19,931 bases of DNA from a virus (Duplodnaviria > Heunggongvirae > Uroviricota > Caudoviricetes). Below, one piece after another: positions 1,273 through 19,931 of the stretch. Each line of letters opens with the position of its first letter. The first letter of the stretch is position 1. The stretch is taken from the IMG/VR virus record IMGVR_UViG_2690316049_000008, positions 1 to 19,931 of that record; one strand, 5' to 3'. The notes under the pieces were generated by a model. The model saw only the letters and a program-made list of their open reading frames with translations. It ran no database searches and was not told the DNA's origin. The position numbers and the translations under genes were made by a program.

Positions 1273-1288
1273 TTGTTGGTGATATACT
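1273..1288 (+). promoter_or_regulatory. Candidate sigma70 promoter: TTGTTG followed by extended -10 TGaTATACT
   Basis: TTGTTG at 1273-1278 and TGaTATACT at 1280-1288, about 60 bp upstream of the small membrane-protein ORF. Spacing between TTGTTG and the -10 is too short for a canonical -35, so activity would rest on the extended -10. Found by eye only. Confidence 0.2.
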
Positions 1289-1349
1289 TAACTGAATTTT
1301 ATGCACAACCATGTTGCGAATTTACCACATCATTACAAGGCAAACGGAA

Positions 1350-1667
1350 ATGAATAAGGATAAATGCTTAAATATAATTATATTAATAATCATTATAACA
1401 ATAATTGTTATTTCTTTTTATCCTATGTCATCAAGCTCAAAAGGGCATGATACGCAAAGTATTTCAGGTGACAACTTTAAATTAAGATCTTCTTTCTCAA
1501 GAGAATATTCATCATGCATATCAAACCTCAAAATGATAGCGCTAGACTTTGCTGGTCATAACATAGATTTCAACAGCCATAGCCAGTTCATAGCTTCAAG
1601 TGGCGAGGAAAAAATATTAGTAAAATGCACAAAAGATAATAAGTTACTATACATGCAAAATAAATGA
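1350..1667 (+). CDS. Small single-pass membrane or secreted protein of unknown function (~105 aa), cargo gene
   Basis: ORF with stop TGA at 1665-1667. N-terminus MNKDKCLNIIILIIIITIIVISFYP has a positive n-region and a ~20-residue hydrophobic core (signal anchor or signal peptide), followed by a ~80-aa Ser/Asn-rich hydrophilic domain with 3 Cys. Very AT-rich. An alternative in-frame start at 1311 (MLRIY...) would give 118 aa. No strong SD at either start. Followed directly by a strong intrinsic terminator. Confidence 0.5.
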   Translation: MNKDKCLNIIILIIIITIIVISFYPMSSSSKGHDTQSISGDNFKLRSSFSREYSSCISNLKMIALDFAGHNIDFNSHSQFIASSGEEKILVKCTKDNKLLYMQNK

Positions 1668-1673
1668 GAATTT

Positions 1674-1700
1674 CCGCACGCTTATCGCGTGCGGTTTTTT
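1674..1700 (+). terminator. Rho-independent terminator (perfect 8-bp GC-rich stem, 5-nt loop, T6 tract)
   Basis: CCGCACGC (1674-1681), loop TTATC, GCGTGCGG (1687-1694), then TTTTTT (1695-1700), 7 nt after the stop of the small plus-strand ORF. On the minus strand the same hairpin lies just past the stop of the convergent membrane-protein gene but has no U-tract, so it is mainly a plus-strand terminator. Confidence 0.75.
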
Positions 1701-3060: not shown

Positions 3061-3062
3061 AG

Positions 3063-5243: not shown

Positions 5244-5262
5244 TTAATTTGCTCCGGACGTA

Positions 5263-5298
5263 GCAATTCCGGACAAGATGCAACCTGTCCGGCATTGC
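5263..5298. promoter_or_regulatory. 13-bp imperfect inverted repeat (RNA hairpin or possible operator) in the 5' leader of the tailspike gene
   Basis: GCAATTCCGGACA (5263-5275), 10-nt spacer, TGTCCGGCATTGC (5286-5298), with one mismatch. A further direct copy of TCCGGAC is at 5253-5259. It lies 20-55 nt upstream of the tailspike ATG, between the last ejection gene and the tailspike. Confidence 0.3.
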
Positions 5299-5338
5299 AC
5301 TAATGTCAGTTATGATTTGTTAATTATGAGGTGAGTCT

Positions 5339-5416
5339 ATGCAAAGAGATCTGTTGAACATTGCGTTCTACATAGTTGGTTTTTGCACGTTCCTGGTGTT
5401 TGCGAAGCTATTCTGA
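5339..5416 (+). CDS. Hypothetical 25-aa hydrophobic peptide (MQRDLLNIAFYIVGFCTFLVFAKLF), antisense to the late operon
   Basis: ATG at 5339 preceded by GAGGTGA (5328-5334) at 4-nt spacing; stop TGA at 5414-5416. Overlaps the 3' end of the gp16-like gene by 9 nt on the opposite strand. The peptide is one predicted TM helix. Too short for the ORF track, no homology evidence, could be chance. Confidence 0.2.
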   Translation: MQRDLLNIAFYIVGFCTFLVFAKLF

Positions 5417-7405
5417 CAACGCATCAGACTTGGCCCCCTGAGTCAGGGCGTTAATGGCCTTTTGCGCCTGCTGCATGGCTTTCTCAAACGCTGTTGATCC
5501 GCGTGGTGTACTTGCCATTCTGAGCATTGCATTTCTGAATGGCTCGCTCTCATAGGCGCGAGTAAGAAGTCCGTAGCTTACTGCTGCGCCAGTTGTTGCA
5601 GGGTTCATTGCCGTCCCATACCCGATAATGAACGGGATGGTTTGCTGCCCTGTTGGTGTTGTTACTGCCGCTTTTGCAGCCTGCTGCGTGGATTGCAGGT
5701 AGTTTTTCAATCCTTTCAGATAAGCAGCGTCCTGCCCCTTAAATGTGATGCCAGTCTGGTTTTGCAGGATGTTAAGCTGCCGAAGGAACTGGTCAGGGGA
5801 TCCTCCAGATTTCTCCATCGCCTTTCCAATAATGCCATTGCGCATTTGCGCCCTGCCAACACGACCAACTGAGTTATACAGAGTCTTAATTTCCGATTTG
5901 TTCTTGCTGAATAGCATGTTGTTGACAACTTCCGGCGTCAGATCGCCTTTCATGAGAACATTCTTCAGCCTGGTATTCTTTAGTTTAGCCGCTTCGTCAG
6001 CGTAGACGGCATTGGCCTGCTGATATTTACGGAGAGTATCGTTGCCAAGATTCTGTCCAATGGCACCATTGATATCGTCGGTCATTGCCTTGTAAACGCG
6101 CTGAATGGCAGCATCGGAACGGTTTGGTAACACTGGTCGCTCACCCTTCACGTCCATTCTGAACTGGCTGCGCAGATCGCTTAATTGCTTCAAATCCAGA
6201 TTTACCGGACCATCAGGACCAGCATTGCGAACAAGCTCATCACGATAGGACTGAAGTTTTGAAATAGTCTCGTTATCAGCTACCTTACCAAGCTTCTGCA
6301 GATTAGATATTTCTGTATCAATCTGCTGAATTGCTCGTGCAGGCTGAATGTTTACTCCTGCCATAGCATTCTGAACCCGCTCCAGTCGATTACCTGCGGC
6401 ACGACGAATTCCTGATGTTTTCGCTTTAAGGCTGTCAATAACAACAGCTGGATCATACTCACCGAATTTATCAGCAAATCTCTGCACCAACTGGCTTCTC
6501 GCTTCCTGTTGCGTTGCTCTCATTCCGCTTGTGCCAGCCAGAGGGATATTTTCTGCTGTAGTCTGCGCCATTTTTCCGACGCGGGAAGTTGGGTGTAACA
6601 GGTCTGTGGTGTGCAGAGGAACACCTTCACGCTCTGCAAATCTGATAGCCTGCTGCGCTTCTGGCGCAATAGCACCACGAACGCCACGATAAGCAGCACC
6701 TAATCCACGTCCGGCAGCGTTAATAGCACCGCCAGCAAGTACACCAACGCCTAAATCGGTGGCGAGTGCTTCCGCATCATCTTTCGCACTATTTGCAGCA
6801 AGTGATCCAACTGCGTTTTCTGCGAGAAGGCGAGTTGCACCCTGAGCAATTCGACCAGCAAGTGTTGGTGCCTGTGTTGCAGCTCTCTCAACTCCAGCAG
6901 GAGTGAGGTAAGGCAATGCTTCAGCAAATACCCTTCCCTCTGTCGTTTGTGGAGTCAGCACGCCTTGCTGAAGGCCAAAGTCCTGCTCTAATCCCTGCGT
7001 TGTTACTCGTGGCGCTGGTTGATATGTCCCATCGCCAATGCCAAGTTTACCGCCAGCCCAAGCCGCCGCGCTTGTTACAGCATCGGCAACTGATGCAGGT
7101 ATGTTTGCCACGTTCACGCCAGCCTGTACCAGTCCGCGACCAGTCTCTTTTACTGCTTCGCCAAGATCAGACATAAATCCACTTTGCTGTGGTTGTTGCT
7201 GTGCTACTGGCTGTTGTGTCTCCACTGGCTGCACAGATGGCAATGGATAGGCAGCATAGAAAGCTTGCTTAGCCTGCTCTGCATTTTCTCCGGCTTGCGG
7301 GGCCACGACTTCATTGAAGTATTGCTCCTGAGCCTGCGCTTTTTGTTCTGGTGCTAACGCCTGATACTGTGGAGAGGCGATAACATCTTTCCATGCTTTA
7401 GCCAT
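5408..7405 (-). CDS. Ejection (injection) protein, P22 gp16-like
   Basis: 665-aa ORF, third of three consecutive ejection-protein genes in the P22 order gp7-gp20-gp16, directly upstream of the tailspike. Ala/Gln/Gly-rich low-complexity composition typical of these proteins. ATG at 7405 overlaps the upstream stop as TAATG; SD GGGGTGA. Confidence 0.8.
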   Translation of the reverse strand: MAKAWKDVIASPQYQALAPEQKAQAQEQYFNEVVAPQAGENAEQAKQAFYAAYPLPSVQPVETQQPVAQQQPQQSGFMSDLGEAVKETGRGLVQAGVNVANIPASVADAVTSAAAWAGGKLGIGDGTYQPAPRVTTQGLEQDFGLQQGVLTPQTTEGRVFAEALPYLTPAGVERAATQAPTLAGRIAQGATRLLAENAVGSLAANSAKDDAEALATDLGVGVLAGGAINAAGRGLGAAYRGVRGAIAPEAQQAIRFAEREGVPLHTTDLLHPTSRVGKMAQTTAENIPLAGTSGMRATQQEARSQLVQRFADKFGEYDPAVVIDSLKAKTSGIRRAAGNRLERVQNAMAGVNIQPARAIQQIDTEISNLQKLGKVADNETISKLQSYRDELVRNAGPDGPVNLDLKQLSDLRSQFRMDVKGERPVLPNRSDAAIQRVYKAMTDDINGAIGQNLGNDTLRKYQQANAVYADEAAKLKNTRLKNVLMKGDLTPEVVNNMLFSKNKSEIKTLYNSVGRVGRAQMRNGIIGKAMEKSGGSPDQFLRQLNILQNQTGITFKGQDAAYLKGLKNYLQSTQQAAKAAVTTPTGQQTIPFIIGYGTAMNPATTGAAVSYGLLTRAYESEPFRNAMLRMASTPRGSTAFEKAMQQAQKAINALTQGAKSDALSE

Positions 7406-8799
7406 TAATCACCCCATAGTGAAGAAAAGTTACTGCTGGCTGCTGGTTGTGATACCTGTGCAGGTTGAGATTGCTGCCGCTGAGATTTACCAACATTAAC
7501 GTTATATTGTTGGTTGTAATTGTTGGTGTATTCCTGAATCTCACGAATCGACTGCTGCATAGCCTCCGGGCTTGAATAGTCAACCTGCGGCATCCCCTGA
7601 AAATACATCTTCGCTTCTGCAACGGTGTTAATACCACTGGCCCCCATGTCCCTTGCTGCCGCCACACCCTGATTCTGCATTCTGCCCTGAATACGTTGTG
7701 CTGAGTTATATAACTGGCGCTGCTCTTTTCCTGTTAATCGGCTGCGAACATCAGCACCAATTGCCGGGTTACCTGCGCCGCCGGTCATTCCTGTCATGAA
7801 ATCGAGAGCAGAAGCGTCTGCATTTGCGATCGCGTCGATATCCTTCTTCATGGCATAGTTTTGTGCTGATGCAGACGATGTTGCAGGCGCTGCGATTGAA
7901 CTGGCAGGAACGCGAACCATATTCCCCTCGTTGTCGATGCCTTCGTAGAACGCATTTGCCCCAGCGCCGTGAAGTTTCCCGCCAACCGTTACAGTTCTGC
8001 CATCTGATAACTGAACTGTACGCTCATCATTCCCAGCGGTTCCTCTTGTTGACGCTCGCTGCATTGCCAAATCCTGCCCGCGTCGCGCAGTAGAAGCAGA
8101 TAAATCCTGACCGCGCATCGTGATGTTCTGACCTCGTGCTGTTAGCGCCTCTCCAGCCTGATTGCTGCGGATTGTCTCTGCAAGTTTTCCGCGATCAATC
8201 TCACGCCCAACGATTCTGTCTTGCGCCTGAAAATATTGTTCTGGACCAAGTGCAGCCATTCCAAGGTGATCAACAAACTCTGTGAAACCTTGTGGATTTT
8301 GCTGATACATTTTCGCCACATCCAGAGGGTCTACTCCGGCACGAGTAAGCTCAGATGAGTTGTTCTGCAACCATGACATCATGGCTTCTGGAGATGAAGC
8401 TGCCAGTCTGGCACTTGCTGCCAGTGTGCCGACAGTGGAACGCTGGTCTTCATCGACAAATTTCATGCCGTTTCTTACAGCGTCAAACTGCTCAGGATAC
8501 TGTGATGCCAGTTTTCGCATTGCATCGCGGTCACCAGATGTATATGCATCAGCATAAGCCTGCTGAAACTCTTGCTGTCGCTTCTGCTGATCCATCTGCT
8601 TATACATATCCATGACAGATGAAATGCCCTGCAAAGCCTGCAAGCCAACGTTATTACGTCCTGAACGCTCCATCTCGTTATTCTGTCGAATGTATGCAAG
8701 CGTGGCGTCTGCATCACTTGCTCTTGGAGCGTTGGAGTTCATGCCGCCTAACCCGGCAAGAAGCGCGCCTGAATTACCAGCCTGTTGCCATGTAGCCAA
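7405..8799 (-). CDS. Ejection (injection) protein, P22 gp20-like
   Basis: 464-aa ORF in the position and size class of P22 gp20. The first codon at 8799 is TTG, preceded by a strong SD GGAGGTG at ~5-nt spacing immediately after the upstream stop, so a TTG start is likely. Confidence 0.8.
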
Positions 8800-8811
8800 G
8801 AGACACCTCCA

Positions 8812-9471
8812 TTAAAACAGTGAACCAAGAAGGCCGACGCCAGCACCAATTGCTGTACCCCAACCAGGCATGATTGCAGTACCCATCGCAGCACCTGCCG
8901 CAGCTCCACCGAGAGCACTCTGAAAACCAGACGGTTTATTGGCATTTGCTGCCGCTGCCGCCGCCTGCTGTTGATACAATTGGCTGACGTTGTTAGCGTA
9001 GTTCTGCCCGGCGTTTGCCTGACCTGTAAGAGCACCAAGGCCAATGTTTGCCAGATTGTTGTAGTTGTTCATCTGACCTGACAGCCAGTTTTGACCGAGT
9101 GTAGGTGCGATTGCTGCTAACTGGTTTCCTGTTGCTGTAGAGCCTAATCCACCCGTTGCCTCTGCTGCAGCAAGACTCTGATAGCGCGCCTGCCCTGCAA
9201 GGTCTTTATACTGCTGGGAGTTGTAATACTGGTTAAGCGCCTGACCTTGCCCCTGAAGAGAGGAAAGATTCTGCAACTGTGATACGTACTGCTGAGCGAG
9301 TGGCGTGAACGGTGCAAGGTTCTGCATGTTTGTCTGCCACATTTCACGCTGCAATTCGATACCCTTTTCAGTTGCGCGTGCCTGGGCTTTAGAGCCGGAG
9401 TCGCTGCCGCCTTTCATGTACCCATTCATGGGAAGCAATTTATTCTTGAAGCTTTCGCTAAGTACCAACAT
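8812..9471 (-). CDS. Ejection (injection) protein, P22 gp7-like
   Basis: 219-aa ORF with a Gly/Ala/Gln-rich C-terminus ending in a hydrophobic Gly-rich tail, and a KGGSDSGSKAQARATE motif resembling P22 gp7. ATG at 9471 is preceded by GAGGAG at 7-nt spacing. Overlaps the gp14-like gene by 14 nt. Confidence 0.8.
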   Translation of the reverse strand: MLVLSESFKNKLLPMNGYMKGGSDSGSKAQARATEKGIELQREMWQTNMQNLAPFTPLAQQYVSQLQNLSSLQGQGQALNQYYNSQQYKDLAGQARYQSLAAAEATGGLGSTATGNQLAAIAPTLGQNWLSGQMNNYNNLANIGLGALTGQANAGQNYANNVSQLYQQQAAAAAANANKPSGFQSALGGAAAGAAMGTAIMPGWGTAIGAGVGLLGSLF

Positions 9472-9925
9472 TTAATAGCTCCTCATATTTCGAACGAGGT
9501 AATTGATAGAGGGTGATTCCTACCGGTTTTCCGTTACTCATGTACGCATCATCAAGGTGACCAACACGGGTAGCGCCAAGCAAACGGATAATTGCCCGTC
9601 CATATTTTGTGGTGTCAGGAACCATAGTGATGCTGTTAAGGAATGGTGAGTTTTCGAGAAGCCACTTGCAGAATAATCGATGCCCTTGCAGTGCATATTC
9701 ACCACGGAATCCGGGGTCGTACACCGCATGGCATTCAACAACGCTATGCCAGAAGTTACGCACTTCATGAACGCCAGCCAGCACTAATCCTTCGTAGATG
9801 CCGAGATATACCGCATCAGGCTTGATGTAGTATTTATCTCCACTGTCTACGATATTTCCCGTGTTTGCCGGGTTGTTGAGGAATTCTGCAAGCTTCACCG
9901 GATTATCGATGAGCTTTATTTCCAT
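9458..9925 (-). CDS. P22 gp14-like protein (role annotated only by position in the late operon)
   Basis: ORF in the gp14 position between tail needle and ejection genes. The track starts at GTG 9928, but ATG 9925 has the better SD spacing (GGAG 5 nt upstream) and overlaps the tail-needle TGA stop as TGATG. Confidence 0.75.
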   Translation of the reverse strand: MEIKLIDNPVKLAEFLNNPANTGNIVDSGDKYYIKPDAVYLGIYEGLVLAGVHEVRNFWHSVVECHAVYDPGFRGEYALQGHRLFCKWLLENSPFLNSITMVPDTTKYGRAIIRLLGATRVGHLDDAYMSNGKPVGITLYQLPRSKYEELLNVGT

Positions 9926-10878
9926 CACTGCTCCGCAATGATTTTGATGGTTGTGGCAGTAAACGCCGCACCATTAGACTGAATGGTTAACGTACTGCCA
10001 TTTGTGGCAAGAAAGCCGTCTTTATCCACGCTGAAGAACGTAGCTAACAGGATGTTGTCGGTTGTTGTCGCCGAGTTGCGACTGCTTACCAGTGTGTCAG
10101 GAACAGAACCGGAAAAAGTTAGCTGCATTGACCTGTTGGCGGTTCCGCTGGGCCACGTCCCAACAATCGACAGCTTGAAGAACAAGGTTTTGTTCTCGTT
10201 GAACACAACCATCTTGTTGTTAACGGTGTCGAAGAATGGTGCCAACTCACCGGATGACGGCGTGAGCGTTTTCAGCAGGCTAACAAGGTTGGTAGGCGAT
10301 GTCGGAATTGTTACCGATACCCCTGAGTAAACAACCTCTGATTTCTTGCGCGTGGTGGCATACTCAAGCGCAGATATTCTTGTTGAGTGATCACCAACTG
10401 TGCTTTGTAGCGTCGAAATACTTCCCTCTGCCGCTGTGAGCCTGGTATCAAGTGCGTCGATATCGGTTGTATTCTGAGTTATGCGCGCATCATGGTTTGC
10501 TAACTCAGATTCATTGGCAGCAATTCGCGTCTCGTGATCAGCCAGCTCTGTTTCAGCAGCCGTAATCCTTGTTTCATGATCTGCAAGAGTGCTTTCCGCT
10601 GCTGCAATTCTATGTTCATGATTGATGAGAGTTGCTTCAGCAGCTTCAATTCTGGATTCATGGTCTGCAAGGGTGACATCCTGCTCATCGTTCCTGACCT
10701 GTGCATCATAAGCGCCCTGTCCGGCCTCGTTGGCTTTGTTAGCCACGTTACCAACATCAGTGCCCTGTGCGATAACGTAAAGCAGATACGACTGCGAGAA
10801 GATATTGCGTGGAAGGACTGATGTGTCGAGCCGTGTAGCCTGAATGATTACCGGCACATTGAGATTCGAATCAGCCAT
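9925..10878 (-). CDS. Tail needle protein (P22 gp26-like) with trimeric coiled-coil repeats and a C-terminal knob domain
   Basis: 317-aa ORF. The N-terminal ~65 residues ([43 protein letters not shown]...) match the conserved gp26 N-terminal hub-binding region. The centre holds 14-residue (double-heptad) repeats of the [11 protein letters not shown] type. The C-terminal ~140 residues are a Ser/Thr-rich globular extension absent from P22 gp26, consistent with an Sf6-type knob. ATG overlaps the gp10-like stop as TAATG. Confidence 0.88.
10459..10677 (-). repeat. Imperfect tandem 42-bp (14-codon) repeats, about 5 copies, inside the tail-needle gene
   Basis: Protein-level repeats [14 protein letters not shown] / [14 protein letters not shown] / [14 protein letters not shown] / [14 protein letters not shown] / [14 protein letters not shown] are mirrored by ~42-nt DNA repeats; 10546-10587 was checked to encode [14 protein letters not shown]. 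Short ORFs on both strands in the ORF track here are frame shadows of this repeat. Confidence 0.7.
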
Positions 10879-12296
10879 TACTCAATCCTTATCTGGCAGC
10901 CTGACAGAGTGACAGGTGACTTCGTGATAACGCGCAATTTGAAACCGACATTTTTCCTGATGCGCCCTACTCGCTTCCACAAAACGCGTTTGTCGTAAAC
11001 GAACGGTTCATTCTGCTCAATCATCTGCTCACGCCCGTAATTGATGCCGTCAGTGGTTGCAGAGAGAAAAAGGCGGTCAGCATACTGCGCAACTCCAGTT
11101 GAAGATTCAACTTCAAGGTCGAAAACTCTGGCGTTATCTGCTTTGAACAACGGAGTAAACAGCAGGTGTTCCTGCTGCTTGTCGTACTGACTGCTGATAT
11201 CGAACTGCAATTTCCCGGTCACCGATTCCAGCTTATCGCCGCACGTTATCTGATTTCCTTCGTAAATGAAGTCGATAGCGCGGTACACATCGTCATACAA
11301 GCCTGTTTTCAACACACACCATTGCGGACCATTGGCGCTTGAAGATGCGTCGTACACGAGGACGTGGCGCGGAAGGTGGATAATCAGCAACTCATGAGCA
11401 TCAAATCGTAGAGACTCCATCACGCCATCAGCCAGTTCATCAGCAGTGTAGGAGCGGAGGATTTTCTCAATGCTCGCGCTGGCGATTGGTGATACCTGAC
11501 CGGAGCCGATGATGTAAACAGACGGCGCACCTGTTGCCGGATTGCTGATGAACGCATACGAATCAGCAAACGGCGTTTTGCAGTAGGTTCCGGCGATTCC
11601 TTTTTGCACCATCAACGATGGCTGGGCGACATACAAAGCGGCACCAACAGTGGTTGCACCAGTCAGGGAAAAATATTCAATCGTCGATGAACCAAAGCAG
11701 ACGATGAAGTCTCGCCATGTTCCGATGCCGATGATGCCGTCAGGCTGCGATTCTGCGCGATATTGTGCGCTGTATCGGTCAGGATGTGATTCGTCTTCAA
11801 GGTCAGTGATAAACCATGAATCAGTGCCGTCTTTTGACCACGCATAACGCCCACGTAAGCGCGTAATGTCGCGTACTGAGCCTAACTCATACTGCGTGAA
11901 TCCGCTGTCTGTAGGCCAGTTTGAGACGGTTTTAACCGTGCCATCATAGCGATACTCGACCAGTTTCCCGTTAACGCCTACCGCCTGTGATGTCCGACCA
12001 TGCGCCATTGATACACGACCACTTCCGGCGACGTCACCGACTTCACTTTCGCCTTTGTACAGCTTGCCACCACACACGCGATAAACAGCATTCTGCGCCA
12101 TGTTGTACTCGACGCCACGCGATACGCCGTTCACATCAGAACGTTTGGCAATGCCCGGGAATGAGCGAAGATATCCGCTGCTGTTAAGGATTTCTTTTGG
12201 TGTAGCCAACATATTCACTGGCAGATAGTCGATATAGTCGGCGTTTCGGAAGTCTTTGCCGACACCTTTCATAAGCGGAAGTTGCTGAATCGGCAT
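10878..12296 (-). CDS. Tail hub / head-completion protein, P22 gp10-like
   Basis: 472-aa ORF, matching the length I recall for P22 gp10 and sitting in its position downstream of the gp4-like gene. ATG at 12296 with SD AGGTGA 5 nt upstream. Confidence 0.85.
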
Positions 12297-12355
12297 TTAT
12301 TCACCTATGCGTTTGGGATATCGCCATCAATCAGAGGGAGATCGCCTGGATAATA

Positions 12356-12787
12356 TCAGTCAGATGTAAACACGTCATATTTATTACCCTGTCCTACAGG
12401 AAAATCTCCACGTCGTCGCATTGAAGGAACAACCAGAGTGTCGGTCATCAAGGCATCATATGAGCGTTGGGCGTTACTGAGAACTTGCGGAGTTGGTTCA
12501 AGGCTGTAATCAGATAGCATTCTCAGCAATAACTGATAGCCTACTGCGTGTTTGTATTTTCTTGGAAGACCTGACTCATCATCTGGTAATGGCTGATCAT
12601 CTCCAGTTGCGAAAGCGTAACCAATGTCGCCGGGGTTAATCATCCACTCGGACATCATATCTTCCAGATCATTTACACCATCTTCAATTGATTGCGGCTC
12701 AACATCAGTCAGCGATGCATTAGAAGCAATAGCAAACTTACGAAGCGCAAAAAGGACGATCTCACCCTTTGTCAGTACTGTTGCCAT
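12356..12787 (-). CDS. Head-to-tail adaptor protein, P22 gp4-like
   Basis: 143-aa ORF whose N-terminus (MATVLTKGEIVLFALRKFAIASNASLTDVEPQS) aligns with what I recall of P22 gp4. It is the first gene after the coat gene and small ORF, as expected. Confidence 0.82.
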   Translation of the reverse strand: MATVLTKGEIVLFALRKFAIASNASLTDVEPQSIEDGVNDLEDMMSEWMINPGDIGYAFATGDDQPLPDDESGLPRKYKHAVGYQLLLRMLSDYSLEPTPQVLSNAQRSYDALMTDTLVVPSMRRRGDFPVGQGNKYDVFTSD

Positions 12788-12947
12788 TGTCTGCCGCCTT
12801 ACGACCTCGCTTACTGGTCGGTTTCAATTCATCAACTGAGGCAACAAAGCCCAACCTTTCGAAAAACTGGAAGTCTTTTTCTGCGATAACGGCCTGTACA
12901 TGCCCGGATTCGTTATCTGCGGCAAGGAATACACTCATCCGATCCAT
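12762..12947 (-). CDS. Small hypothetical protein (61 aa) between coat and adaptor genes
   Basis: ATG at 12947 preceded by a good SD (AAGGAA, 5-nt spacing). Overlaps the start of the gp4-like gene by 26 nt in another frame. No recognisable motif. Confidence 0.45.
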   Translation of the reverse strand: MDRMSVFLAADNESGHVQAVIAEKDFQFFERLGFVASVDELKPTSKRGRKAADNGNSTDKG

Positions 12948-12958
12948 ATTGTTTCCTT

Positions 12959-12986
12959 AAAACATAAAAGGGGCGTAAGCCCCTTG
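12959..12986 (-). terminator. Intrinsic terminator-like hairpin immediately after the coat gene (probably partial or leaky)
   Basis: On the minus strand, right after the coat TAA stop: AAGGGGC, loop TTAC, GCCCCTT, then TTATGTTTT (7-bp stem; stem and loop at 12968-12985). It is followed by the SD of the next small ORF, so some readthrough into downstream late genes is expected. Confidence 0.6.
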
Positions 12987-12989
12987 TTA

Positions 12990-14261
12990 TTACGGATTAC
13001 CGAAGAACTGACCGCCCATGTGAGGGTTAAAGCACACATATGCAGGCAGTAAGTCGAAGCGCATTTTTTGCACGTTGGCATCGCCATCTGCGTATTTATG
13101 TACGCGGATGGAGAAACCTTCATATGTTGCAACAGCAGAATCAATACTGTGCAGTTTCGGCAGTGGGATAGAGCCAAGTCCACAGAAGAACTTGTTATAG
13201 AACAGGTTTGGCTTCATTGTCTGGCTAGCAGTGCCTACTACAGATACGGCATCGCCTGCCTCTACCTGACGACTTACAGAGTTGTACTGCGGGTTTGTAG
13301 TGTCATAAATCGGAACACCAGAAAGCGTAACCGTCACATCGCCACCGCTGTCTGAATTAGCATCAGCAGTAACCGTTGCAGTGAAGCTAATTGGTGTGGT
13401 TCCGTTATACAACGCCTGTTTGGTCTGCTGTTGCAGCCAGTAGGTATTGGTGAATTTGACCTGATCACCAGCTTTCAGAAAACCTGTAACGCTGGCTGTC
13501 GCTCCGGTCAATGTTACAGTGAACTGGTATGAGTCTTTAACTGCGTTATAGGTAACAGTTGGCTGTGTTTTGACTGTCAGTGTTCCGCCAAATGCCCCCT
13601 GCGTACGAGAGGCAAGCCCATTAGACATCAGTGCGCGAATGCCGCCAAAATTGGTTGGGATCTGTGCGTTCTCCCATGCAGTACGAACCAATTGATCTGA
13701 AGCATGCAAACCAGTCTGCGCATCAGCAAGTCGCTGTGCAGACCATGGATCCATTACAGCATAGTTTTCACCTTCATTAACGCCGAGGTCTTTCAGGAAA
13801 GATGCCGTCTGCGCAACATCAGACCATTTGGTGATTGGAGTATTGGGGCTACCAAGTGACAACGCACCGTTATTCATCATGAAGTGAGCAAGCTCTGTTT
13901 CAAGGTCGGTAACGATTCGCTGGCGAACCGGCGCGAGAATTCCTTCCAGCTGGTTAAGCTTGATCGCTTCCTCCAGTTGCTGATATTCAACAGCAACAGT
14001 GATGTAGTTACCTACACGCCCCGTAGCTTTACCTGAGATCAGGTTGTTTTTATTTTTCCCTGAAATATCACCAGTGGGAGTACGGAGGGATGAGAATTGA
14101 TGCGGACGTTTAAAGCTAACGCTATCGCCAGTGCTGGAGTTGATTTCACCTGCCAGCAACTGACGGTCTACGGTTTTCGCCAGAACTAAATCTGACATAA
14201 AACCCGGAAGGAATTTTTTCAGAACGATTTGACTGACGTTACTGTCGAGATTGTTAGGCAT
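12990..14261 (-). CDS. Major capsid (coat) protein, P22 gp5-like
   Basis: 423-aa ORF directly after the scaffold gene and before a terminator hairpin, the classic P22-like order portal-scaffold-coat. Strong SD (AAGGAA, 7-nt spacing). Confidence 0.88.
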   Translation of the reverse strand: MPNNLDSNVSQIVLKKFLPGFMSDLVLAKTVDRQLLAGEINSSTGDSVSFKRPHQFSSLRTPTGDISGKNKNNLISGKATGRVGNYITVAVEYQQLEEAIKLNQLEGILAPVRQRIVTDLETELAHFMMNNGALSLGSPNTPITKWSDVAQTASFLKDLGVNEGENYAVMDPWSAQRLADAQTGLHASDQLVRTAWENAQIPTNFGGIRALMSNGLASRTQGAFGGTLTVKTQPTVTYNAVKDSYQFTVTLTGATASVTGFLKAGDQVKFTNTYWLQQQTKQALYNGTTPISFTATVTADANSDSGGDVTVTLSGVPIYDTTNPQYNSVSRQVEAGDAVSVVGTASQTMKPNLFYNKFFCGLGSIPLPKLHSIDSAVATYEGFSIRVHKYADGDANVQKMRFDLLPAYVCFNPHMGGQFFGNP

Positions 14262-14272
14262 TTATCTTTTCC

Positions 14273-15157
14273 TTATTCGATTTTTGCGCCGGGGCATAAT
14301 TTGTTGAATTCGTCTTGTTTCGCATCAGCACCGCCACCACGTACTTCCGGCTCTGGCTTGATGGCTTTCTTTGGTTTTGGAGCAAGGCTTACCTGTTTGC
14401 TAATCTGCCCCAAGAGGAATGCTGCGCGAATTGGATCTGTCTCAGCGGCTACACGCTGGCGTAATTGCTGGCTCTTGCCTAAGCCATAGGCGAGTAGTTC
14501 AGAGCCTTCGTCTGCACAGTGAATGATGATTTCCTGCTGAATTGGTGGTAGCTCACTAAGAACAATGGCTTCCATTTCCTGATAATCTTTCACAGGAAGT
14601 TTGGCTGCCCGTTGTTTATGCGCTTCTACCCTTTGCTGGAAACGCTGCTGGTATTCCTGTTGCTGACGTAGTTTTTGTTGCTGCTGCTGTTCGACACGGC
14701 CTTTTTTCTCATGCCAATCAGTCAATGCCTGTTCAAACGCCTGTTCGTCATAATCACACGACTCAAGAGTCGGTTTTGGTGGAATAGCGTCTGGTTGTGG
14801 TTGCTGATGTTCCGCTGGCTTGGCTAATGCTTCCTCAAGCTGGCGGCGCAACTCACGGTTTTCTTTCTGTGTTTCTTTGAAGCCTTTGCGAAGATCTTTC
14901 ACCCATTGCGGCGCAGGTTGCCCGTCAATGTGATCATCATCGTCAGCGTTAAGCTGAATTTCTTCATCACCAATACGCAAGGCGTAATCTTCTGGTGTCT
15001 CTTCGGTTTTTTCAGGCTCAGTTGCCACCTCTTTACCGTTGTCATCCTGGCTTTCATTCTCAGGCTGTGACTCTGTTTGGATGATGGTTTCTTCTGCATT
15101 TTCCTGTGTTTCAGACAGGTCAATAACCTGACCGTCGATGATCAGTTCGTTTTCCAT
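14273..15157 (-). CDS. Scaffolding protein, P22 gp8-like
   Basis: 294-aa ORF between portal and coat. Highly acidic N-terminal half, Gln/Arg-rich predicted helical middle (QQQQQKLRQQQEYQQRFQQRVEAHKQR) and a basic C-terminus, as in phage scaffolds. SD AGGAG 6 nt upstream of the ATG. Confidence 0.82.
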   Translation of the reverse strand: MENELIIDGQVIDLSETQENAEETIIQTESQPENESQDDNGKEVATEPEKTEETPEDYALRIGDEEIQLNADDDDHIDGQPAPQWVKDLRKGFKETQKENRELRRQLEEALAKPAEHQQPQPDAIPPKPTLESCDYDEQAFEQALTDWHEKKGRVEQQQQQKLRQQQEYQQRFQQRVEAHKQRAAKLPVKDYQEMEAIVLSELPPIQQEIIIHCADEGSELLAYGLGKSQQLRQRVAAETDPIRAAFLLGQISKQVSLAPKPKKAIKPEPEVRGGGADAKQDEFNKLCPGAKIE

Positions 15158-15170
15158 TGATTACTCCTGG

Positions 15171-17297
15171 TTAACTCGGCATTAAGTCTGCCGGTGACTG
15201 TGGTGGTGACTGGAATTGCTGTTGTTGTGACTCGGCGACATCTTTCAGAAGGCGTATTGCCTCCATCACTGCTTTGTCATCGATGTTTCTGGCTTGAGCC
15301 AGTTTATAGACAGTGTTTGCCTGACTCTCCATCGCATCCTGCTGGGCAGTAAATGCTTTGATTTGAGTTTGAGCAGTTTCGTTAGTTGCTTTTTGCGCTT
15401 CTGCCTGCGCTGCTACCATTTGCGCCTGAGCGAGAACCATTTCAGGATTTGGCTGGCTTTGTGCTGCCATTTGCGCCTGTTGAACAATCTGCTGCTCTTT
15501 CTCATTGCGTGGTTTTGCAATGCCAGATATCAGCAGTTGGTTTCGGTTGTACTCTTTGAAGTCATCAAGGCCTTCGCCATCAATATTGTCCAGAATAATA
15601 CCCTGAATTGCCGGGCGCATTGGGTCTGTTGGAAGCATAGAGCTAAGGACATTTGTCAGTACAGAAACCGTTGCATCACGTCGTGCTGTGTAGCTTGGTC
15701 CAACATCAACCGTCACATCGTATCGACCGACAGAAAGGTCATTTAAAGCAACAACAGCCCCTGTTTGCCTGTCAACAACCTGTGCGCTCAGGACAGCGAT
15801 ATCATCACTTCCATCTTCGTTAACGATGCGCACTTCACGCTCTGAACCGTACACTTCACGCGCCATTGACAGCCATACTTCACCAGCGCGTTTAAGACTT
15901 TTCGCCATATTGTCCAGATAGATAAACGAAGCCATATCTGCTCTGTTCATCAAGTTGTTAACCGTTTCCTGAGCAATATTACTTGGCATCTGCTGCATGG
16001 CCTGACTGCCGCCTGTAACCTCCTGAATATCTGCACTGGTTTGCTGTAGTAATGCAGCCAATGCCTGATTCATAACCGCAGGCTGTGTATATCCTGCCGG
16101 GGTAGCTCCAGCGATAATGTTGCCAGATTTATCTCTCACTTCGCGCAACGGCAAGAACGCTGGTCGTTTCTTGTTGCGAGCCTCCCAGTGCTTCTCAAGT
16201 CCACGAATTTGCTCCATGCCAACTATAGGGATCTGACCGGGGTCTTGCGCTGCAGTATCAGCCAGCATTGATACCTGAAGGTTATACAAACGCTGTGGAT
16301 CCATTGCTTTTGCAATGTGCCCTTCGACACGCTCAATGTCATCAATGAACCAGCGTTTTCCATAAACCGGGATGAGGGGGATATGCTCACCAGGAATACG
16401 TCGAGGTTTCTCAAGGAAACCATCACCATCCACTACGGATACATACACACGACGGCGCTTCACTGAGCGCCTTGCCACTTCATGAAATCCAGCTATTGCC
16501 AGTTCATCTTCAATATCTTCAACCTGATCACTGTCGTATGTTGCAATCTCTCCAGTGATTGGATGTCGATAACTGATGACGTCAACAGACTCTTTACGAA
16601 CTTCGTAATACTTCGCTATGTAAATAACATCTGCACCAAACCAGTTATATTCCCAACTGGTCATAGACGTTACATCCAGAGAAGTAGGAGGTTTCTTCCC
16701 GTATTCAGCCTCATATTTTTCAGGTGACAACGAATACATACAGAACGCCCACAACGCGTCAGATTTGTCGTACTTCTTAGCGTCAGGGTCAAACCACACA
16801 GAGCGCGACGGGTCGTATATTGGTTCAATAGCAATACGCTGACGATCGTCCATGGGGTCGTATTCATTGACCAGCATCGACGTCAAACGGAAGCAACCGA
16901 AACCACCAGTAGCAGCGTCGTCAAATGCATTATCGCAAGCCTCACCGCCATCAGTTTCTTCGTAGTCAGCACGGAACAGACCATTTAATTTATTGGCTAA
17001 CTCTTCGCTTGCCTCTCTGTCACCAGGACGAAACTTAACGGTTATTCTGTTATTGCGGTATTCTGCAATGATGCGGTTAAGTTCAGTTGCTACCTTATTG
17101 ATTTCAAACTTAGGATACTTCTCGAACTGCTCATCAAGCTTAGTTCCAGCCGCCGTTGCTCCTTCCCATTGACCTCCGGGGACACGAGCAAACCTCGTAG
17201 CTTCAATGCACTTTTCGCGCACTTCCTTCTGTGGAGAATAGGCGCGGTCAAACCTGAGCATGATCCGCTCATGTTTTTTCTCTAATGTCTCTGCCAT
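15171..17297 (-). CDS. Portal protein, P22 gp1-like
   Basis: 709 aa from ATG 17297 (MAETLEKK...), placed 2 nt after the terL stop. The track ORF extends 24 codons further upstream, but that extension overlaps terL and is unlikely to be translated. Size, position and a C-terminal Gln/Ala-rich predicted helical tail match P22-like portals. Confidence 0.9.
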   Translation of the reverse strand: MAETLEKKHERIMLRFDRAYSPQKEVREKCIEATRFARVPGGQWEGATAAGTKLDEQFEKYPKFEINKVATELNRIIAEYRNNRITVKFRPGDREASEELANKLNGLFRADYEETDGGEACDNAFDDAATGGFGCFRLTSMLVNEYDPMDDRQRIAIEPIYDPSRSVWFDPDAKKYDKSDALWAFCMYSLSPEKYEAEYGKKPPTSLDVTSMTSWEYNWFGADVIYIAKYYEVRKESVDVISYRHPITGEIATYDSDQVEDIEDELAIAGFHEVARRSVKRRRVYVSVVDGDGFLEKPRRIPGEHIPLIPVYGKRWFIDDIERVEGHIAKAMDPQRLYNLQVSMLADTAAQDPGQIPIVGMEQIRGLEKHWEARNKKRPAFLPLREVRDKSGNIIAGATPAGYTQPAVMNQALAALLQQTSADIQEVTGGSQAMQQMPSNIAQETVNNLMNRADMASFIYLDNMAKSLKRAGEVWLSMAREVYGSEREVRIVNEDGSDDIAVLSAQVVDRQTGAVVALNDLSVGRYDVTVDVGPSYTARRDATVSVLTNVLSSMLPTDPMRPAIQGIILDNIDGEGLDDFKEYNRNQLLISGIAKPRNEKEQQIVQQAQMAAQSQPNPEMVLAQAQMVAAQAEAQKATNETAQTQIKAFTAQQDAMESQANTVYKLAQARNIDDKAVMEAIRLLKDVAESQQQQFQSPPQSPADLMPS

Positions 17298-17299
17298 GT

Positions 17300-18712
17300 T
17301 TACCAACCGGAGGATGAGGGAACGTATATTTCTGTTTCTTCGCGGACCAATGCCGGGCAATGCATACACATCATCAGCGCATCAGCCAGGTTAGGAGATG
17401 AAATACCGAGCTTCTGCTTCATTTCGACCTTAGTCATAAGCTCCAGCTTCCCGTTATTATTGAATTTGCGCTGAATCTGCGTCAGTTCTGCAAACAGCTT
17501 CTCCAGCATCTTCTCGCCTATCACTTCTTTGTCGAAACTCAGCATGTCGTCGGGGTCTGCATACTCACCGTGGACAACCGCCCGATATGTCAGATACAGC
17601 CTGTCAGCCAGCGCGTAATAGAATTGCGCTCGCTTATTGCGGAATACATCGCCAATAGTGCGAACGTTGTCGCCCTGTACGACTTCATCAGCCCATGCTC
17701 CGGCCTGATACGGAGCATCTTCATCGAATGGCGATTCGCTGCCCTTGAACATCGTGGCGGTGATTTTCTTGCCGGAGAACGCTTCCGTTGTCTGTCTGCG
17801 TAGCCCGGCACCAACACCATCACCATCCCACAGGTAATGGTCAGCGCCGTCTTCAATCGCCAGCGAAGTAGCCCAGTCAGCACCCTCGTTGATGTCCATC
17901 AGCAGACCTTCGGCAATGCGCTTAACTACCGAACCGTGACGCGATGCATAACCTTTAGCATCTGGCCCTGTATCTGATGGGTCATGCGCAGAGACAACAG
18001 CGCCTTTCGCTTTCCATCCGAGTTTCTTGTGCGCATCGGTTGCGGCTTCAAGCCATTCACGTTTGATGATTGCCATATCACTTGCGCTTACTGGCTCACC
18101 AAGCCAGATGTGACGATACAGTGTCGGGTTTCTGCGTTTGCACTCTTCCATCTCCAGACGGAGAACTTCAGGAAAATGCGGGTTGTCGGTGTAGTTCACC
18201 GTCAGCAGGCAAATATCATCGGGAGGATTTACAACGAATCGCTGATAGGTATCGTCGAGTATGTTCTTCGGGTTAAAGCTCACCCATATTTCGGAAAACG
18301 GCTTGCGGATGGTTGGAATCAGGATATCCCACGATTCCTTTGTTACCGCTTCCGCTTCTTCCACCCAGCAAATATCAATGCCTTCTAGCGATTTAATCTT
18401 CGTCGGGTTGTTTTTGATGCCGTAGAACATGAATTCAGCATTCGTTCCGAGATGACGAATCATTGAACGCTGAATTTCAAACTCAGACGAATACCCTTCC
18501 CGCTCTATGGTGTCTTCAAGCAACCGGATTACCGAATCGCTGATACTGTTTTGCAGTTCACGAGCGCAGAGAATACGCACTGGCTGACGACGCGCCGCTT
18601 CAACAAGCAGCCTAGCAATTGCCCATGACTTACCGCTACCTCGACCGCCTTTGGCGACTTTGTAGCGATGCGCCTCAATGAACGGTTCAAAGATAGGATT
18701 AATCGAGGTCAT
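17300..18712 (-). CDS. terL: Terminase large subunit
   Basis: 470-aa ORF with an N-terminal Walker A P-loop (KGGRGSGKS) and Walker B-like hydrophobic-DE (ICWVEEAEA), followed by a C-terminal acidic nuclease-type region. ATG overlaps the terS stop as ATGA. Closely resembles the Sf6-type large terminase as I recall it. Confidence 0.93.
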   Translation of the reverse strand: MTSINPIFEPFIEAHRYKVAKGGRGSGKSWAIARLLVEAARRQPVRILCARELQNSISDSVIRLLEDTIEREGYSSEFEIQRSMIRHLGTNAEFMFYGIKNNPTKIKSLEGIDICWVEEAEAVTKESWDILIPTIRKPFSEIWVSFNPKNILDDTYQRFVVNPPDDICLLTVNYTDNPHFPEVLRLEMEECKRRNPTLYRHIWLGEPVSASDMAIIKREWLEAATDAHKKLGWKAKGAVVSAHDPSDTGPDAKGYASRHGSVVKRIAEGLLMDINEGADWATSLAIEDGADHYLWDGDGVGAGLRRQTTEAFSGKKITATMFKGSESPFDEDAPYQAGAWADEVVQGDNVRTIGDVFRNKRAQFYYALADRLYLTYRAVVHGEYADPDDMLSFDKEVIGEKMLEKLFAELTQIQRKFNNNGKLELMTKVEMKQKLGISSPNLADALMMCMHCPALVREETEIYVPSSSGW

Positions 18713-19134
18713 TTTCCGAATAGAGTGCTCATCGGTGATGTTTCAATCTGAATTGCGCCGCCGTCTTTGCCGACAAGCTCGTTAGTTACCTTGTCGCCAT
18801 ACTTACGGGGATTCATTCGGGCCAGCGCCCATTTGCGGGTATCAACGCGAAGTCTTGCCTTTGCCACCTCAGCAGCATCTGGAATCGCAGTGTCAGCAAT
18901 TTCGAATATCTCTTCGAAAATAGAATCAGCTCGTGCCTCAGTTGCCTTCGCGTACTTGTCTCTAAATTCTTCATGCTCTGACAGCCAGCGAAATACAGTA
19001 GCCTTTGCTGGCATGCCGGGGCGCTTGCAAACCTTAACCAGACTTTCCCCGGAGGCAAGCAGCGCACAGATATCATCAGCCACCTCCGGTAGGTAATCCG
19101 AAGGGCGACCGACATTCTTTTTCTCAGTCGCCAT
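18709..19134 (-). CDS. terS: Terminase small subunit
   Basis: 141-aa ORF directly upstream of and overlapping terL. The N-terminal region (RPSDYLPEVADDICALLASGESL) looks like a helix-turn-helix DNA-binding part. Resembles the Sf6-type small terminase as I recall it. Confidence 0.85.
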   Translation of the reverse strand: MATEKKNVGRPSDYLPEVADDICALLASGESLVKVCKRPGMPAKATVFRWLSEHEEFRDKYAKATEARADSIFEEIFEIADTAIPDAAEVAKARLRVDTRKWALARMNPRKYGDKVTNELVGKDGGAIQIETSPMSTLFGK

Positions 19135-19213
19135 ATTGATTATTTCCCTTCTGCTTGCTTATCCCATTCATCGCGGAATTTGGATGGGTTGTCGAAACCT
19201 TGAGTTGCCATGT

Positions 19214-19456
19214 TTATGCTCCGGTAGTGAACAGGTCTAACGCTTCCTTCGATTTACGCACCGCTTCAAATGTGCGGATCGTGATATCCGAATTAGCGCC
19301 ACCTGACTGGAAGTGAATTTTGAATAGCTCAAGCTTCAGTTCGTCAGTGCCAATGAATTGAAATGCTTCTTCTGCGGCTGCGTTCTGGTTCATGACCAGT
19401 TTGTAAATCTCTAACTGGAATTTCTGTTCTTCAGTCATGGGAATAATCTCTGCCAT
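19214..19456 (-). CDS. Hypothetical protein (80 aa), acidic, predicted helical
   Basis: ATG at 19456 preceded by GGAG at 6-nt spacing. Sits between the gp66-family gene and terS. No recognisable motif. Confidence 0.6.
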   Translation of the reverse strand: MAEIIPMTEEQKFQLEIYKLVMNQNAAAEEAFQFIGTDELKLELFKIHFQSGGANSDITIRTFEAVRKSKEALDLFTTGA

Positions 19457-19475
19457 TGTTGGCTCCGTTTATCCG

Positions 19476-19503
19476 TTAAAAGGGATATCAGTTAAGTTAT
19501 CCC
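19476..19503 (-). terminator. Weak terminator-like hairpin between the gp66-family gene and the 80-aa ORF
   Basis: On the minus strand: GGGATA, 10-nt loop, TATCCC, then TTTTAA (6-bp stem, 19482-19503). Stem is short and the loop large, so function is uncertain. Confidence 0.3.
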
Positions 19504-19559
19504 GTGTAGGGTATAAGCCATTATCAAAGCCACTCAGTAAGGAATGGCTTTTGTAATAA

Positions 19560-19931
19560 CTACTGTTCGCTTAGCTTCTGCTTCAGCAAGTAACCTTCGA
19601 GCATCCAGATTTTGTTTACAGCATTCTGCCGGGCAATCTTCCGACCAATTTCTGCATCAAAATTTTCCGGACTTGCACAGGCACTCTCTCCGGTGACGGT
19701 GAAGCCGTTGCGCAGCACCAGGACGCAGAACGTCAGCAGAGAAAGTGATTCGTGCGGCTGGTAGTTTACCTCTCCGCCAGTATGTTTCGCTTTTATGGCT
19801 TTGCCAAAGGCACCATCCTCTGCTGTGAAATATGCCTCCTGAGCAATAATTCCTTCGATATGGTCTGGCGTAACTCGCGGTGCCGTTTTGCCTTTCTCAA
19901 CGATTTCTTTTTCGATTTGCTGGTCGTTCAT
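19560..19931 (-). CDS. Phage protein of the N4 Gp49 / Sf6 gene-66 family (function unknown)
   Basis: 123-aa ORF whose ATG is the last codon position of the window (19931). Motifs such as TFCVLVLRNGFTVTGESACASPENFDAEIGRKIARQNA resemble my recollection of this family. Its position just upstream of terS matches Sf6 gene 66. Confidence 0.65.
   Translation of the reverse strand: MNDQQIEKEIVEKGKTAPRVTPDHIEGIIAQEAYFTAEDGAFGKAIKAKHTGGEVNYQPHESLSLLTFCVLVLRNGFTVTGESACASPENFDAEIGRKIARQNAVNKIWMLEGYLLKQKLSEQ

Follow-up and report, generated by a model that had tools for sequence, protein, structure and literature searches.

What is encoded in the short interval that separates the last accessory gene from the terminase genes of a P22-like phage? 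The question is raised by positions 19135-19559 of a 19,931-nucleotide (nt) stretch of viral DNA (IMG/VR record IMGVR_UViG_2690316049_000008, positions 1 to 19,931; the whole stretch is called the window here), which lie between a gp66-family gene and the small terminase gene terS. The original prediction, made from the letters alone, had described this interval as the end of the lysis and accessory region directly before terS. This placement is correct: read on the minus strand, the interval closes the accessory region in the late operon of an Sf6/P22-like (Lederbergvirus-type) Escherichia coli phage or prophage. We find in it two elements, a large two-part stem–loop (hairpin 1) and a micro-gene of 23 codons, which judging from their substitution patterns are under selection. 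Both are unmarked in the annotated records that we inspected and uncatalogued in Rfam, NCBIfam, PHROGs and Pfam above threshold. A small hairpin (hairpin 2) and a gene of the DUF2560 family lie between the two.

A covarying stem–loop after the gp66-family gene

The minimum free energy fold and a covariance model both give a stem–loop of 44 nt, which is built as follows.

19560-19517, minus strand: hairpin 1, two-part RNA stem–loop, 44 nt
19560-19554 and 19523-19517, minus strand: outer stem, GUUAUUA paired with UAAUGGC
19553-19552 and 19525-19524, minus strand: 2x2 internal loop, CA opposite GA
19551-19542 and 19535-19526, minus strand: inner stem, AAAGCCAUUC paired with GAGUGGCUUU
19541-19536, minus strand: terminal loop

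The predicted energy of hairpin 1 is -18.3 kcal/mol. A region of 136 nt folds at z = -3.95, and none of 200 shuffled sequences is equally stable. An inverted repeat had already been noted here, with AAGCCATT (19550-19543) pairing with AATGGCTT (19522-19515). These two segments are literally complementary, but the pairing was mis-assigned and is not kept in relatives; thermodynamics and evolution both favour the inner-stem pairing of AAAGCCAUUC with GAGUGGCUUU over that of AAGCCATT with AATGGCTT.

Covariation was assessed in two sets, a hand-checked MAFFT alignment of 42 unique hairpins and a covariance-model alignment of 110 strong sense-strand matches, 58 of which are distinct. Standard pairs fill 97.2% of the paired cells in the MAFFT set (42 sequences) and 96.3% in the model set (58 sequences); when the 3′ partners are slid, these values fall to 30-54% and 32-54%, respectively. 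Five pairs have changed on both sides in the MAFFT set and 12 of the 17 pairs in the model set. In 500 shuffles the observed covariation score of the MAFFT set was never reached, nor were the observed values of all five measures in the 500 shuffles of the model set. The model alignment contains 25 distinct inner stems, 18 of them fully paired, and the CA/GA internal loop is identical in 57 of the 58 distinct sequences. From these alignments we conclude that hairpin 1 is a real, selected and covarying element, far beyond chance.

The hairpin is also strongly asymmetric between the two strands. G-U cells outnumber A-C cells by 124:12 in the model alignment, and the covariance model scores the copy in the window at 62.2 bits on the minus strand and at 16.3 bits on the plus strand. 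Since G-U is in such excess over A-C and the sense score is far above the antisense score, the structure appears to be selected on the transcribed strand. We also considered a terminator that would act in both directions or on the opposite strand, and rejected it, as the antisense strand has A-C mismatches and the class B hairpins lack a T-run. Searches of Rfam 15 gave no relevant match, neither for 18900-19931 of the window at E up to 10 nor for the corresponding loci of Sf6, APC_JM3.2, Emek and Stx-1717 at E up to 1.

Distribution of the stem–loop

With BLAST and the covariance model we found hairpin 1 in P22-like phages, including P22 itself, in HK97, HK022, HK544, HK106, mEp235 and mEp460 and in several Stx1 and Stx2 phages. 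Its orientation is always that of the late genes. In the window the stop codon of the gp66-family gene (TAG, 19562-19560) ends with the G which is the first base of the stem–loop, and about half of 108 copies begin 0-6 nt past the stop codon of an open reading frame (ORF). The upstream neighbour is not constant: across 80 loci with the identical DUF2560 gene, hairpin 1 follows at least five unrelated sequences, and its stems differ there in a mutually compensated way, as in AAAGCC/GGCUUU, GAGACC/GGUCUC and AAGCCC/GGGCUU. Genomes carry one or two copies, in this region only, and two same-strand copies are present in 35 of 73 loci. The complete genome of Sf6 (39 kb) has exactly two, at 37833-37872 and 38497-38540, which flank gene 66, and none elsewhere. 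The 19.9-kb window has a single copy; any second one would be past base 19931. In P22 the copy sits after rha. In HK97 and HK544 it is followed by only about the first 28 codons of the DUF2560 gene, and in the Stx phages and mEp460 by unrelated sequence. The late region of the E. coli K-12 prophage DLP12 has no copy and K-12 RNase or ribosome profiling (Ribo-seq) data are therefore uninformative for hairpin 1; the published BTP1 transcriptome does not cover the site.

Two further observations concern the annotation and the order of these elements. P22 "orf25" (NC_002371 40329-40406; 1521-1598 of the fetched locus L088) takes its start from the AUG in the loop of the stem–loop and extends across the 3′ arm; a hairpin artefact is more probable here than a gene. 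In Proteus phage Brookers (L086, 1201-2054; about 60% identity) the order is micro-ORF, gp66-family gene, DUF2560 gene and then the stem–loop directly after the DUF2560 stop codon. This reordering of the same four elements suggests, as far as gene order can tell, a long-standing association of the parts.

Does hairpin 1 act as DNA?

The distribution raises the possibility that hairpin 1 is a strand-specific folded site in the DNA, a recombination or boundary site that ends exchangeable accessory cassettes and mediates their shuffling. Copies directly follow the stop codons of accessory genes of many kinds; they share a conserved base (CATTACA...GATAATG) and an invariant bubble, whereas the top varies. 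The one or two copies of a genome bracket a swappable gene, which is gene 66 in Sf6 and a Rha or KilA-N module elsewhere. BLAST homology breakpoints fall at or inside the hairpin (19536 and 19557-19560) and one locus (L252) has a hybrid hairpin composed of a class-A 5′ arm and a class-B 3′ arm. Integron attC sites and repetitive extragenic palindromic (REP) elements are strand-specific and lie after the stop codons of cassettes or genes; their cognate enzymes are IntI and the REP-associated tyrosine transposases (RAYT), and their boxes have the consensus GTTRRRY and GTAG, respectively. Hairpin 1 resembles them in its position after stop codons, its conserved base with a bubble, its variable top, its strand specificity and its proximity to exchangeable accessory genes. 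Unlike them, it has no IntI- or RAYT-type enzyme nearby, its arms (CATTACA and GATAATG) contain no match to the R-box GTTRRRY, and its copies are far fewer. Moreover, the strand asymmetry is explained equally well by RNA.

A second comparison leads to the "boundary sequences" (bsq) of Sf6 and HK620, short conserved stretches at the junctions of lambdoid modules. Hairpin 1 too is a short conserved stretch at such a junction, and the breakpoints coincide with it. However, Casjens's annotation of Sf6 places none of bsq2 to bsq7 at this site, and boundary sequences have not been described as covarying hairpins. Nor do we see a dedicated recombinase beside hairpin 1; the annotated Sf6 genome has only a lambda-type integrase and IS911. 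Ordinary homologous recombination at a conserved RNA element would yield the same mosaic pattern, and two hairpin 1 copies of one genome differ in their inner stems. In our view a role as a DNA site is thus unlikely, and we prefer to see hairpin 1 as an element of the late mRNA.

A conserved micro-gene of 23 codons

19211..19140, minus strand: micro-gene, 23 codons (from the ORF list)

The 23-amino acid (aa) ORF in front of terS had been noticed before at 19143-19211; it is present and conserved, but these limits leave out the stop codon and the full frame is 19211..19140. It encodes MATQGFDNPSKFRDEWDKQAEGK and is preceded, 7 nt before its ATG and within the last codons of the DUF2560 gene, by a GGAG. 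In the closest copies we observed four substitutions, all four synonymous. Searches with tblastn retrieved complete ORFs of 23-27 aa with 52-75% identity in Emek, HK544, Cronobacter phage ES2 and phages of Proteus and Providencia. These define a family of 23-29 aa with the motif …G[FS]DNPSKFR[DE]EWD…. A degenerate DNA pattern for the core matched the fetched loci 142 times, which corresponds to about 48 peptide variants with lengths of 23-29 aa, and it had 14 matches, all genuine, in a bacterial collection with one genome per species; the latter come from Escherichia, Enterobacter, Proteus, Rosenbergiella, Atlantibacter and Trabulsiella and from two contigs of metagenome-assembled genomes (MAGs). 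With its own start, Shine–Dalgarno sequence and stop, the micro-ORF is thus found in phages or prophages of Escherichia, Salmonella, Cronobacter, Proteus, Enterobacter, Rosenbergiella, Atlantibacter and Trabulsiella.

The two MAG contigs (L322, assigned to Cellvibrionaceae, and L323, assigned to Candidatus Nanosynbacter) carry the E. coli/Salmonella-type micro-ORF and hairpin essentially unchanged and almost certainly represent binning contamination by enterobacterial phage DNA.

The substitution pattern is of the coding type. For codons outside the searched pattern, the entropy at codon positions 1/2/3 is 0.86/0.69/1.32, and a glycine codon which the pattern does not cover varies almost solely at its third base. 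Across 18 variants G, N, P, K, F, R, E and D are invariant. A Shine–Dalgarno sequence precedes nearly all copies and the stop codon is exactly six codons past the WD in 47 of 52 sequences, whereas the last residues and the stop codons themselves vary. The pattern of codon change argues that the micro-ORF is a conserved protein-coding micro-gene.

The micro-ORF occurs in several contexts. It directly precedes terS genes of two families, Sf6_terminase and GP3_package (gaps of 5, 2, -1 or -4 nt); from a Terminase_2-type terS it is separated by a hairpin, in a gap of 55 nt. Elsewhere its stop codon touches a stem–loop of the hairpin 1 type or another small hairpin, and often it is found just downstream of an intrinsic terminator. 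In other phages its slot is taken by gp68/HkbN, by an HNH gene, by plain spacer or by terS itself.

No PHROG or NCBIfam entry matches the micro-ORF and a PDB profile search was also empty. It is not annotated by the Prokaryotic Genome Annotation Pipeline (PGAP), and a full-text literature search for the motif found nothing. The nearest Pfam family is DUF2740 (PF10872). The ORF and four relatives score 12.7-15.3 bits against a cut-off of 27 and three further relatives are unmatched; the weak local match covers profile positions 19-32 of 43, corresponding to the GFDNPSKFR[DE]EWD core, and stays below membership. Sf6 gp68 and P22 Orf59c were tested as DUF2740 members or as relatives of the micro-ORF and are neither. 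In Proteus phage Pm34 (gp6, L315) and Providencia phage PSTNGR2lys (QPB11334, L316) "hypothetical proteins" of 48-63 aa are annotated which cross an intrinsic terminator and share sequence with the micro-ORF, though in a different frame. Both are probably mis-called.

Could the micro-ORF be a mere translated spacer that couples ribosomes into terS and whose peptide is functionless? The tight spacing would fit: 2 nt separate it from the DUF2560 stop codon and 5 nt from the ATG of terS, and before terS we read only a distant AAGGG, 11 nt upstream of the start. The arrangement also recurs across three terS families. However, the amino acids are conserved while the third codon positions vary freely, and the micro-ORF is also present where no gene follows closely. 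We regard a functionless spacer as quite unlikely. Since the peptide sequence is conserved, the peptide probably has a function of its own.

Regulatory leader peptides offer a further comparison. TnaC is such a peptide with 24 aa. Like TnaC, the micro-ORF is short (about 23-29 codons), has a conserved Trp/Asp motif at a fixed distance from its stop, and its stop often lies against a downstream RNA structure. Unlike TnaC, its C-terminal residue and stop codon are unconserved, its context is variable and its motif reads as a salt-bridged amphipathic helix.

A second conserved micro-ORF, MNLQPYGKKDSLWWRTDGKTS..., was seen outside the window in the spacer of about 200 nt between two hairpin copies (Sf6, L317 ~38022-38087), as well as in P22 (L088 ~1440-1500) and in Emek and HK544 (L083/L084 ~1130-1170). 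Where the context is of the Rha type, its frame extends into the next hairpin and ends at a UGA in the loop; four loci have it joined in frame with the NPSKFRDEWD micro-ORF. Of 5426 complete E. coli genomes, 1115 contain at least the initial ~50 nt of this second micro-ORF, and none of them annotates it.

The DUF2560 gene and the neighbouring genes

At this end of the window every gene runs on the minus strand, in the order gp66-family gene, gap of 103 nt, 80-aa ORF, 23-aa ORF, terS and terL. Besides the micro-gene these are:

19560..19931, minus strand: gp66-family accessory gene, 123 aa (Pfam PF13876 Phage_gp49_66, E 8.6e-35)
19559..19457, minus strand: untranslated gap, 103 nt
19466-19463, minus strand: GGAG, Shine–Dalgarno sequence of the DUF2560 gene, 6 nt before its ATG and kept in related loci
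19456..19214, minus strand: DUF2560 gene, 80 aa (Pfam PF10834)
19134..18709, minus strand: terS, Sf6-type small terminase, 141 aa (Pfam PF20901 Sf6_terminase, E 9.6e-45)
18712..17300, minus strand: terL, whose start (18712) overlaps the end of terS by 4 nt

By BLAST the DNA is 94-98% identical to that of Sf6, HK620 (94-97% for these two), IME10, APC_JM3.2 and many other P22-like phages, and 100% identical DNA is present in E. coli chromosomal prophages. The promoter scan found no sigma-70 promoter-like site in the interval nor in Sf6 37600-39043. A moron would carry a promoter and a terminator of its own; with no promoter-like site in the scans and a weak terminator, the region does not qualify as an accessory gene of this type. 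The gp66-family gene has a near-identical copy in Escherichia phage Huey (PQ850609.1) which is annotated there as "anti-CRISPR protein"; all other records call it hypothetical or Gp49 family.

The 80-aa acidic ORF had been reported with a good Shine–Dalgarno sequence, and both hold: the protein has 13 D+E against 8 K+R, giving a net charge of about -5. As a member of Pfam DUF2560 it spans the complete model (143.3 bits against a gathering cut-off of 25, E 2.6e-42; residues 5-76 on model positions 1-72 of 72) and also belongs to phrog_571, for which no function is given. Its counterparts are Sf6 gene 67 (gp67), HK620 hkbM and P22 orf80, so that all three phages named for comparison in the original prediction have the gene; the stem–loop was found in Sf6 and P22. 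Homology and structure prediction for the protein, which had been proposed as checks, thus yield DUF2560 membership and a model of a small four-helix protein. In length, score and the usual place in the late operon just upstream of terS (annotated Sf6, P22 and Emek regions) it does not differ from the named members of Pfam DUF2560 and phrog_571.

The identical protein is encoded in 80 IMG/VR loci with differing flanks. The 124 distinct DNA versions of the gene encode 16 proteins, with 758 synonymous against 196 non-synonymous codon differences and 26/11/48 variable sites at codon positions 1/2/3, as a real gene under purifying selection would show; we conclude from these counts that it is one. 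In a P22 mutant a kanamycin cassette replaced orf25-orf80 and lysogenisation and lysis were retained (PMC11016777). Because this deletion is viable, the DUF2560 gene is probably dispensable in the laboratory. There is no solved structure and no informative fold match for the family, and literature searches found nothing on the function of DUF2560, DUF2740, hkbM or the boundary sequences. In sum, this is an ordinary gene, already catalogued as a family.

Several observations concern its borders. What follows DUF2560 at the same TAAAC-ATG junction is, in relatives, terS, a gp68-like gene or the micro-ORF. Database entries of 102-129 aa had suggested a longer isoform; this was rejected, as the five inspected (P0001, P0003, P0006, P0009 and P0016; 106-129 aa) are upstream-extended gene calls, some of which take the AUG in the hairpin loop as their start and extend across both hairpins. 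The HK97-like phages (HK97, L087 1403-1490; HK544, L084 1378-1465) have both hairpins and about 28 first codons of DUF2560, then unrelated sequence before the HNH gene gp74. This switch is a mosaic junction inside the DUF2560 gene, and phrog_23132 accordingly matches residues 1-28. Finally, three ACGG[GA] motifs (ACGGGAUAAC, ACGGAUAAAC and ACGGAGCCAAC) lie within 50 nt of the DUF2560 start (window 19457-19516, minus strand), the last one overlapping the Shine–Dalgarno sequence. The cluster resembles CsrA-type GGA sites, a candidate which we set aside.

The small hairpin

19503-19478, minus strand: hairpin 2 with U4; GGGAUAAC (19503-19496) paired with GAUAUCCC (19489-19482), then UUUU (19481-19478)

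Hairpin 2 has one A-A mismatch, the loop UUAACU, three G-C pairs and an energy of -8.3 kcal/mol. It competes with an alternative pairing of UUAUACCC (19516-19509) with GGGAUAA, which forms a hairpin of -4.2 kcal/mol. The weak terminator-like hairpin of the original prediction is thus present but no better than chance. A terminator scan did not call it, about 1.7 terminator-like sites being expected by chance in this stretch, and it is missing in some relatives. For an intrinsic terminator the scan required a G+C-rich stem followed directly by at least 5 U in 8 nt; here only UUUUAACG follows the stem, which falls short of this. The hairpin is found in 82 of 92 unique related segments; in the others it is deleted or the U-tract is replaced, and some of these keep DUF2560. 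As the hairpin is almost invariant, its covariation cannot be judged. Relatives without it lack a segment that here lies between direct repeats, UUAUACCC and GAUAUCCC. At best, hairpin 2 is possibly a weak terminator or attenuator element.

Taken together, hairpin 1, the linker, hairpin 2 and the UUUU could be read as one regulatory RNA, either an attenuator for the packaging genes or a small RNA derived from a 3′ untranslated region, with the micro-ORF as leader peptide in relatives. A module of about 100 nt from hairpin 1 to ...AACGGAUAAA stands nearly unchanged before the unrelated sequences of DUF2560 or GGTATTCAAGCC... (Stx phages and mEp460). It offers mutually exclusive pairings, UUAUACCC:GGGAUAA with UAUCC:GGAUA on the one hand and GGGAUAAC:GAUAUCCC followed by UUUU on the other, and the substitutions seen fall mainly at unpaired positions of these helices. 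In Emek, HK544 and many diverged prophages the stop of the micro-ORF abuts the hairpin base, and the peptide motif keeps its fixed distance from the stop codon. On the other hand, Q/gp23 antiterminates late transcription in these phages and should thereby override a weak terminator, and hairpin 2 is weak, with almost no covariation. It is deleted in several relatives which keep DUF2560. In this window the micro-ORF is not adjacent to the hairpins, and its last residues and stop codons vary, unlike those of known stop-codon arrest peptides. Rfam has no family that matches the two-hairpin unit. We think it unlikely that the interval works as such a regulatory RNA.

It might also be argued that the hairpins and the 23-aa ORF are incidental spacer features without function. 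The orf25-orf80 deletion of P22 is viable and hairpin 2 alone does no better than chance. Against this stand the conservation across genera, the compensatory changes, the strand asymmetry and the codon-position signature. For the interval as a whole this explanation is hardly credible. It is contradicted for hairpin 1 and the micro-ORF; for hairpin 2 only, an incidental origin is possible.

How the interval might work

The late operon of P22 and lambda is one long antiterminated transcript. We suggest that hairpin 1 punctuates this late mRNA, and that ribosomes start anew downstream and are led on into the terminase genes by coupling; we give this joint reading a probability of about 50%. Hairpin 1 would act in the mRNA rather than in the DNA and mark the 3′ end of an accessory-gene unit, as a barrier to 3′-exonucleases and/or as a processing site, possibly for RNase III. 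Hairpin 2 may trim transcripts that are not antiterminated. After the untranslated gap of 103 nt translation would restart at the Shine–Dalgarno sequence of DUF2560, and tight coupling would hand the ribosomes on, first to the micro-gene (2-nt gap), then to terS (5-nt gap) and to terL (4-nt overlap). The peptide could bind a conserved partner as a short amphipathic helix, NPSKFR[DE]EWD; viewed as a helix, this segment has F and W on one face and i/i+4 salt bridges. We infer each of these functional steps (processing or stability, coupling, peptide activity) from elements whose presence, conservation and spacing are observed.

Hairpins that are processed by RNase III are known from long phage transcripts, such as the R sites of T7 and sib of lambda. 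Hairpin 1 is similar in being intercistronic, two-part and interrupted by an internal loop, in being repeated at gene boundaries and in having its structure kept more than its sequence. It differs from them in its shorter stem (17 bp), its small, symmetric and invariant 2x2 loop, its 1-2 copies per genome and its restriction to the accessory region. An RNase III substrate should offer about 20 bp or more of double-stranded RNA (some two helical turns), in many cases interrupted by an internal loop. Hairpin 1 has 7 + 10 bp with a 2x2 loop, which amounts to about 19 stacked positions.

A number of points weigh against this scheme. The 17-bp stem with its 2x2 loop is short for a canonical RNase III site. 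As the CA/GA loop is invariant and the lower stem is AUUA/UAAU, a sequence-specific partner is suggested, one that the scheme does not name. The alignment of the model set was fitted to the model itself, and because the sequences are related the independent compensatory events must be fewer than the cell counts suggest. The strand asymmetry alone leaves room for a site in the DNA, since G-T pairs also form in folded single-stranded DNA. As to coupling, copies of the micro-ORF are also known at a distance from terS, behind terminators and in front of hairpins; coupling to terS can therefore not be its sole role, and relatives without the micro-ORF express terS from a leader of its own. Finally, plaque formation by P22 requires neither orf80 nor the phage's copy of the stem–loop, which overlaps orf25 (PMC11016777).

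A more far-reaching idea would unite the parts in another way. The CATTACA...GATAATG stem–loops may be the recognition sites of a cassette-exchange or regulatory system of the late accessory region, in which a phage or host factor reads the CA/GA bubble. The NPSKFR[DE]EWD micro-protein, so often found against these stem–loops or against terS, would belong to the same system and, as a nascent peptide or small protein, regulate for example terminase expression or the exchange of accessory genes. We consider this idea doubtful and retain the punctuated late mRNA as our working model.

Two other candidates were discarded. There is no consensus match to sites for integration host factor (IHF) or to pac, which in these phages we take to be within terS. 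Ribosome bypassing as in T4 gene 60 lacks the matched take-off and landing codons.

The original prediction had allowed for small regulatory or accessory functions and had called the evidence weak. Being conserved, of the coding type and covarying, the ORFs and the stem–loop can now be regarded as real and selected features with putative functions. Lack of conservation in relatives had been named as the finding that would speak against these elements. The opposite is found: the 80-aa ORF is shared with Sf6, HK620 and P22, the 23-aa ORF belongs to a conserved family, and the covarying stem–loop is present in many lambdoid phages.

Conclusions

The stem–loop and the micro-gene are new families of familiar kinds. 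Few temperate phages have been studied as well as P22, Sf6, HK97, HK022 and the Stx phages, yet this corner of their late operon holds two uncatalogued elements which appear to be under selection. If confirmed, the micro-gene would add a conserved small protein beside the packaging genes to the gene lists of these phages, and annotation would gain as well, since P22 orf25 and several "hypothetical proteins" of Proteus and Providencia phages appear to be mis-called over these elements. The stem–loop, if confirmed, would offer a defined point from which to study the insulation, or the exchange, of accessory ("moron-like") genes inside an antiterminated transcript of 20 kb.

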